A DNA stretch of 64,000 nucleotides from a virus (lineage: Duplodnaviria; Caudoviricetes). Shown in pieces: positions 55,181-55,749 of the stretch. The stretch covers positions 1,815 through 65,814 of IMG/VR virus record IMGVR_UViG_3300010392_001176; one strand, given 5' to 3'. How positions within the stretch are numbered: position 1 is the first letter of the stretch; every line of letters begins with the position of its first letter. Under the pieces are notes generated by a model. The model searched no databases, was not told the origin of the DNA, and saw only the letters and a program-made list of their open reading frames with translations. Position numbers and translations under genes: made by a program.

Positions 55181-55749
55181 CATCGCAATCCATTTCAGAA
55201 CAAAACATGACAATACTCGGCGGCAAATCAAGGCATATCCCGCCCGTCCAGAACGGCTCTCGTCGCCAAAACAAAACAGTACAGGGCATTACTCGACGAC
55301 ACAACAAACCAACCCGCCCCGCATCATTTCACTACGCAGCATAACATTACTCGTCGTCATGCCATCACATAGCATTTCGGTACAGATCACATCTCGACGG
55401 CACTACACTCCGCACCAGCACATCACTCTTCTCGTCGCCACAACACTTCATCGCAGTTCTCGAAGTCAAAACGAAACGGCCCACCACACCCCACTCCGCG
55501 AAGGCAACTCACCCCGATCCGTAACATCACACCTCACCTCATTCCGCGAAGTCAGCTCATCACGCGACACCTCTACGCGGCACACACCACTTCTCGACGG
55601 CAGGGCAACCCACCACACACCATATCATCCCACCACTCGAAGGCAAAACGTTCCACCACGCGGCACGGCAAATCTCGAAGTCAGGACGCTTCACAACTAT
55701 CCACGGCATGTCTCGTCGCCAGCTCCGAACAGCTCACGGCACTCCATTT
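55181..55749 (-). ncRNA. Pentamer-coded guide array (14 blocks, 93 NNN-YG units, 13 octamer delimiters) paired with the RAMP gene
   Basis: Plus strand: all 93 pentamers begin with C (72 CA, 15 CG, 3 CC, 3 CT); delimiters C(T/G)CGN(A/C)GN; abuts RAMP stop codon. Expression as RNA is inferred. Confidence 0.85.

Follow-up and report, generated by a model that had tools for sequence, protein, structure and literature searches.

The locus described here is carried by a phage, on a stretch of 64,000 nt (referred to as the window) taken from a 65.8-kb virus record. It consists of a gene for a small RAMP protein and an array of pentanucleotide units that begins directly after the stop codon of this gene, on the same strand, with an integrase gene in the neighborhood. 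The features are listed below.

57022–58152, minus strand: phage tyrosine integrase (PF00589, E 4.5e-18)
55751–56374, minus strand: vipr-like gene encoding a lone 207-aa Cas7-type RAMP protein (AF2 model and Foldseek)
55181–55749, minus strand: vrRNA array of 14 guides of 4–10 pentamers, NNN-YG on the transcribed strand (gapless parse)
55712–55719, minus strand: delimiter octamer between guides 14 and 13, CTCGTCGC on the plus strand (array parse)
55682–55711, minus strand: guide 13 (block 13), six pentamers whose triplets are antisense to nt 31–48 of tRNA-Sec
55674–55681, minus strand: delimiter octamer between guides 13 and 12, CTCGAAGT on the plus strand (array parse)

On the plus strand, the array is parsed without gaps into 14 blocks, made up of 93 pentamers, and 13 octamer separators of the form C[T/G]CGNNGN. 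Blocks 1 to 14 contain 7, 7, 5, 10, 7, 6, 4, 6, 8, 8, 7, 6, 6 and 6 pentamers, respectively. The first pentamer position on this strand is C in 93 of 93 units, which has a chance of ~1e-39 from composition only, and the second is A in 72, G in 15, C in 3 and T in 3 of the 93. In-phase runs of the pentamer extend to 12 units within the array, against a longest run of 7–9 units elsewhere in the window. Read on the transcribed strand, the unit is NNN-YG, with T (.78) or C (.18) at position 4 and G (1.0) at position 5, and the 13 delimiters follow NCNNCG[A/C]G; the same unit grammar is found in a set of 612 unique guides from 59 loci. Tandem Repeats Finder left the array undetected in the window, where ARAGORN and Rfam also found nothing, and a scan for promoters and terminators was uninformative, with 2 promoter-like sites where 2.5 would be expected and no terminator.

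A strain variant, present on a contig of run X3, can be compared with window positions 55595–55749. Its vipr gene is near-identical, with 4 differences in 568 nt. The variant lacks exactly 38 nt, which correspond to block 12 and one octamer, and 110 other letters take the place of block 14, while blocks 13 and 11 are unchanged. In this comparison, the guides turn over as cassettes at the delimiters.

The 207-aa protein matched no Pfam or PHROG family. Its 305 homologues are all hypothetical proteins of about 200–260 aa, and in their alignment a C-terminal glycine-rich loop is invariant, including G184, G188, G191, E192, R193 and G198. The AF2 model (pLDDT 87.8) gave 152 Foldseek matches in the PDB at E≤1e-3, the best of which are type VII Cas7, Csm3, Cmr4 and Cas7-11 (E 8e-8 to 4e-5). 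Homologues of the gene were collected from 36 viral contigs and 3 MAGs, and a tblastn search of the protein against 50,697 GenBank phage records returned no match. Arrays of NNN-(T/C)G pentamers lie downstream of the vipr homologue, on the same strand, in 15 of 15 related loci inspected. The short delimiters in these arrays mostly end in CGAG, and the motif CGAG(NNNTG)x6 by itself retrieved 77 viral loci. At one locus of a Phycisphaerales MAG (L038:4642–4930), the NNN-YG pentamers are unchanged and the delimiter is different (GATCGGCG-like), which suggests that the delimiter co-varies with the protein lineage. A small ORF of 76–125 aa is conserved beside vipr in 14 of 35 loci (L011, L014, L015, L016, L019, L022, L031, L032 and L039 among them), either between vipr and the array or just after the array, and is a candidate vap-like accessory gene; no such neighbor was found in the window. 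Between the integrase and the vipr-like gene of the window lies a cupin gene (56470–56862, minus strand) that matches Pfam Cupin_2 and the PHROG ‘cysteine dioxygenase’. Directly downstream of the array is a candidate attP with two 19-bp repeats (54923–55173), marked in an earlier annotation that linked its core to a tRNA-Ser; BLAST of 54900–55200 against all collected loci gave 0 matches.

The first-pass annotation, made from the window alone, had taken block 13 to be a guide of a RAMP-based RNA-guided system, and this identification holds: such systems are now called VIPR. The VIPR system (Viral Interference Programmable Repeat) was published in 2026; its parts are an ancestral RAMP standing alone (Vipr), in most cases an accessory gene (vap), and pentamer-repeat vrRNAs (10.64898/2026.04.26.720920). 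Type II VIPR is known from Escherichia phage SUSP1 and a Pseudomonas fulva prophage (10.64898/2026.04.26.720920; structures in 10.64898/2026.04.26.720927). The type II unit is GGY/NN, with GGY hidden by the protomer and NN presented. On the target, the two bases facing NN are read and one base is skipped, and the complex is a binder of double-stranded DNA that silences transcription (10.64898/2026.04.26.720920, 10.64898/2026.04.26.720927). The SUSP1 clade has an invariant pseudoknot 3′ tail after the repeat tract, and the same paper allows ‘a related consensus’ (10.64898/2026.04.26.720920), with the alternative repeats ‘NNNGG, YNNNG and NNNNG’ given in its Methods. Conflict between VIPR and satellites has also been reported, a published VIPR immobilizing a satellite by targeting its excision recombinase (10.64898/2026.10.15.759431). 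We verified YNNGG arrays around the two vipr genes of SUSP1 in its sequence.

Like type II VIPR of SUSP1, the locus combines a phage-borne, lone and small RAMP protein possessing a G-loop with an adjacent pentanucleotide array of fixed and hypervariable positions. The alignment of the 207-aa protein with the 195-aa Vipr of SUSP1 by hhalign is not significant (probability 0.5%, E 0.12), and is colinear with G-loop over G-loop. In contrast to SUSP1, the fixed part of the unit is Y-G (2 nt) instead of GGY (3 nt), and the canonical GGY/NN (YNNGG) consensus is absent from 55181–55749. The guides of 4–10 units are separated by 8-nt delimiters, whereas SUSP1 has a long structured tail; a structured 3′ tail for each repeat tract is absent from the array, with 8-nt delimiters only, between guides, and 0 Rfam matches in the window. 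The window also differs from SUSP1 in having no vap-like neighbor. Non-canonical VIPR grammars provide a closer comparison in some respects, as 21 clusters such as ‘TGH/NN’ appear in the available text of 10.64898/2026.10.21.760802. These share the five-base period and a Vipr-like fold and have another fixed motif; NNN-YG could fit either NNNNG or TGH/NN. The latter differs in that position 3 is H, whereas position 3 of the present unit is A.29, C.19, G.25 and T.28 and so is not H. The available text of 10.64898/2026.04.26.720920 and 10.64898/2026.10.21.760802 describes no targeting rule or natural target for repeats of the NNNNG or TGH/NN type.

The RRM/RAMP fold and the filament display of guide bases are also common to the Cas7 backbones of class 1 CRISPR systems (type III Csm3/Cmr4 and type VII Cas7). 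These differ from the present locus in their period of 6 instead of 5, and CRISPR repeats, cas1/cas2 and other cas genes were not found among the scanned ORFs of the window. By its array grammar and RAMP fold, the locus is a VIPR system, of a UG-anchored variant.

Block 13 reads CAGGA, CGCTT, CACAA, CTATC, CACGG and CATGT on the plus strand, and removal of the first two bases of each pentamer leaves GGACTTCAAATCCGGTGT. The first-pass annotation reported this 18-mer as seen in the DNA. As plain sequence it does not exist in the window (0 matches at ≤3 mismatches, and 0 at ≤2 mismatches for the 13-mer that makes up the anticodon stem-loop), and what stands is its presence as the decoding of 55682–55711. 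The decoded 18-mer has at least 122 exact matches, located in 2 viral contigs and at least 120 metagenome contigs. Among the 122 matches listed, 112 are within tRNA-SeC(tca) genes called by ARAGORN, all in the sense orientation, 5 are truncated at the end of a contig but continue as selC, 4 are selC 3′ halves preceded by unrelated DNA, and 1 is unrelated. The match covers nt 31–48 of a 98-nt tRNA-Sec (in L243, tRNA at 2322–2419 and match at 2352–2369), spanning the last 3 bp on the 5′ side of the anticodon stem, the TCA loop, the 3′ side of the stem and 3 nt at the start of the variable arm. The earlier assignment of the 13-mer to the tRNA-Sec anticodon stem-loop was therefore right, and the 18-mer goes on from there to match the start of the variable arm in a selC type that is widespread; many selC genes continue with GGTGT after the arm, as had been supposed.

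Inspection of 14 decoded blocks for any familiar motif offers many chances for an accidental match, and a guide may also be a functionless remnant picked up from an att site. We give very little weight to a chance resemblance or dead relic of either kind. Three control decodings of block 13 have at best 3–5 mismatches in 58 kb of selC-bearing loci, compared with 0 for the real one, and with 18 of 18 bases matched this makes a chance match very unlikely. In a sample of 401 genomes from one phylum, 91 contain the exact 18-mer and 0 the reversed control. Moreover, guide 13 was retained in the strain variant of run X3 while its neighboring guides changed, which counts against a relic. The phylum is that of MAG G001 (Desulfobacteraceae), which has both a related VIPR and the exact 18-mer. 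The suggestion of a selenoprotein-using host, also made in the first-pass annotation, is only hinted at, by this distribution of the 18-mer across 91 of the 401 genomes.

No tRNA-Sec gene was found in the 65.8-kb virus record, and selC aligned with the phage genome over 13–14 nt at best in BLAST. Since the phage genome contains no piece of selC, guide 13 has no self-target. When decoded guides from 40 array sources were searched for exact matches against all collected loci, guide 13 alone was recovered at 18 nt; at 15 nt the search gave 8 matches, compared with 4–30 in controls, and hence no general signal; one of the 8 is a T-arm-like guide of L019. The other 13 guides of the window matched 0.81 Mb of selC-bearing contigs, and then 58 kb of selC-linked elements, no better than control decodings did, so that no single rival element was identified.

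The match to selC bears on how many bases of each unit are read. Under the published register, 12 of 12 read bases match selC. The six bases facing the published skipped position match as well, an event with a chance of 1 in 4096. All three variable bases thus agree with a contiguous target that has no skipped base, which is a difference from SUSP1. Five guide bases still correspond to three target bases, as in type II; the subtype would appear to keep this geometry, and the pyrimidine sequestered in type II would be replaced by a third reading base here, yielding a contiguous target.

A second line of evidence comes from the family. When the 64 triplets of the 612-guide set are ranked by depletion, the three that are complementary to stop codons take the 1st, 2nd and 4th places. 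On the strand complementary to the guide, in-register stops amount to 42/3843 (1.1%), compared with 2.4–5.4% in the five other frames (79/3231, 132/3231, 207/3843, 142/3231 and 114/3231). The first variable base avoids completing stops: it completes one in 25 of 79 cases against 46% expected (p 0.006), and in a second stop test in 17 of 101, where 27.5% would be expected (p 0.009). The four bases are nearly equally frequent at this position, which therefore does not seem to be constrained by a pocket. Not every guide fits a codon frame, since in-register stops are present in three guides of the window. A guide at L019:4218–4247 is antisense to the T-arm of tRNA-Pro(tgg), a tRNA present in L048 and L050, with 16 of 18 bases matched and 15 of them contiguous, and all six positions facing the published skipped base match. 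The tRNA bank drawn from the collected loci holds 8 non-Sec tRNAs only, and is without power on the generality of tRNA targeting.

Alternatively, 1 or 2 target bases per unit may go unread, so that the true target is co-linear or gapped and the contiguous match to selC is misleading. The published rule does include a skipped base, and patterns of both kinds have matches in viral contigs. The 2-skip pattern matches L248:2909–2936 and L249:4589–4616, two homologous intergenic sites in proviral contigs, located just upstream of a gene start and diverged only at unread positions (2 differences in 28), and the 1-skip pattern matches one tail-fibre-like coding site in three identical contigs. The L248 and L249 sites are the sole candidate for a gapped target. 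Nevertheless, about one independent match per 18-base pattern fits a rough chance estimate, and the chance that two homologues differing at 2 of 28 positions agree on all 18 read bases is ~0.12; the 1-skip and 2-skip matches are probably at chance level. A period of 4 or 5 nt cannot explain the codon-register signal of the family. By our estimate, which allows for many motifs and 14 blocks, an accidental 18/18 match to a conserved tRNA would have a probability of ~1e-3 or less. We hold a gapped or co-linear target to be very improbable.

Two decodings that lie outside this register are recorded here separately. Block 10 (55553–55592) decodes, one base out of register, to LHDLRHT, which resembles the box II motif of tyrosine recombinases. 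In another phage, the array near L207:4053, minus strand (L207 and L019 being one contig), decodes to HDLRH in the same frame as block 10. Both agree with the published targeting of a satellite recombinase. The motif H.LR[HR] occurs 2 times in decoded guides compared with a shuffle mean of 0.7 (maximum 3), a count that is not significant.

The anticodon loop and the T-loop of tRNA genes are places where tyrosine integrases insert genetic elements, and the selC islands of enterobacteria are a familiar case. The use of selC as an integration site, put forward in the first-pass annotation, is borne out in genomes that contain the 18-mer by integrase-bearing elements. In L244 (G163:C16:65500–78500), a full and a partial copy of selC lie 8 kb apart on the same strand, with an integrase possessing an arm-binding domain, Rha, Bro-N and a resolvase between them. 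In L243 (G282:C2:119500–134500), two selC copies are 9.6 kb apart and enclose an integrase, a DUF927 protein and a metallophosphoesterase-like gene. These two elements, of 8–9.6 kb, are satellite-sized and occupy selC in Desulfobacterota-type genomes. The four selC 3′ half copies begin 0–2 nt from the first base of the 18-mer, and the one in L159 is bordered on one side by genes for a tyrosine integrase and a primase, and on the other by a host gene. In the L244 element, the repeat does not begin with the 18-mer but 21 nt further upstream. Such integrase-bearing elements with direct repeats of the 3′ part of selC, comparable to selC islands, are the presumed target of guide 13 and not the system itself. 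In these bacteria, selC is thus a much-used site of integration, and the 18 bp fall within the stretch common to attB, attP, attL and attR of the selC-integrating elements, as placed by the visible repeat boundaries.

We consider it probable that guide 13 directs Vipr to the att core of selC, where the complex would hinder the integration or excision of rival phages or satellites that integrate at selC. Since the phage carries its own tyrosine integrase, it is regarded as temperate and would therefore compete for lysogeny. The array would be transcribed and processed, and the 207-aa RAMP protein would polymerize on the transcript with one protomer per pentamer, each protomer holding the fixed Y-G and presenting the three variable bases. 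In guide 13, all six triplets together are the exact complement of 18 contiguous bp of selC, at which the RNP would most likely bind DNA. A bound RNP at the block shared by the att sites would hinder integration or excision of the rivals, with lower transcription of selC as a side effect or a second aim. Because the 18-mer is inside the att-shared stretch, and at its edge in four elements, a use against rival integration or excision seems the most likely one. It also fits the published immobilization of a satellite through its excision recombinase. Like the targets of published VIPR, the present one is tied to the mobility of rival elements, and it differs from that of SUSP1 in being a host tRNA gene and att core instead of a coding gene. 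A more specific version, in which the UG-anchored subtype reads all three variable bases, sits on the att crossover core of selC, and physically blocks recombination of rival satellites or prophages without gene silencing, is put forward only tentatively and may well not apply as a whole.

The main alternative is that the host gene itself is the aim, the guide silencing selC and thereby lowering tRNA-Sec and selenoprotein synthesis during infection or lysogeny, with rival elements irrelevant. Published VIPR represses transcription from within transcribed DNA on either strand, the target here is inside a tRNA gene, and 112 of the 122 exact matches listed are intact selC genes. Pure silencing, however, does not predict a footprint that starts so close (0–2 nt) to the boundary of the att identity block, as is found in 4 of 4 half copies, and the natural targets published so far are rival mobile elements. 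We know of no gain to a phage from the loss of selenoproteins. Silencing of selC as the aim is accordingly judged unlikely. The host's own intact selC would be bound as well, and for this reason silencing of selC and occlusion of the att site are inseparable by sequence alone. The first-pass annotation had allowed for both, as occlusion of an att site used by rivals or modulation of host selC, and by analogy with published VIPR biology either effect of the guide is plausible.

Action on RNA has also to be considered, in which an antisense RNP sequesters or marks tRNA-Sec itself. The vrRNA triplets are antisense to tRNA-Sec, as are those of the L019 guide to its tRNA-Pro, and type III relatives of Cas7 bind RNA, although the relation here is one of fold likeness only. 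On the other side, the characterized VIPR binds double-stranded DNA with both strands targeted, and the antisense orientation in 2 of 2 guides has a p of 0.25. A folded and modified anticodon arm is a poor pairing partner. An RNA target for guide 13 seems to us highly unlikely.

VIPR as a system is already known. What is new relative to the main texts on VIPR is the evidence that target information resides in all three variable bases, together with the perfect match of a host tRNA gene at the att core. Targets of the tRNA or att-core class are not described in the main texts of the VIPR preprints searched, whose supplements may list some, three of these preprints lack the word ‘tRNA’ altogether, and our literature search returned no paper pairing ‘vrRNA’ with selC, tRNA-Sec or selenocysteine. 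The rule of two bases read and one skipped was established on the GGY/NN type, and the perfect natural target of guide 13 points to target information in all three variable bases of the widespread Y-G-anchored subtype. If full-triplet reading is true, the protein would be a compact, contiguous-reading and PAM-free DNA binder of about 200 aa. Here a phage guide is aimed at the host tRNA gene where rival elements recombine, and guide 13 provides a testable prediction on the fights of phages over integration sites.
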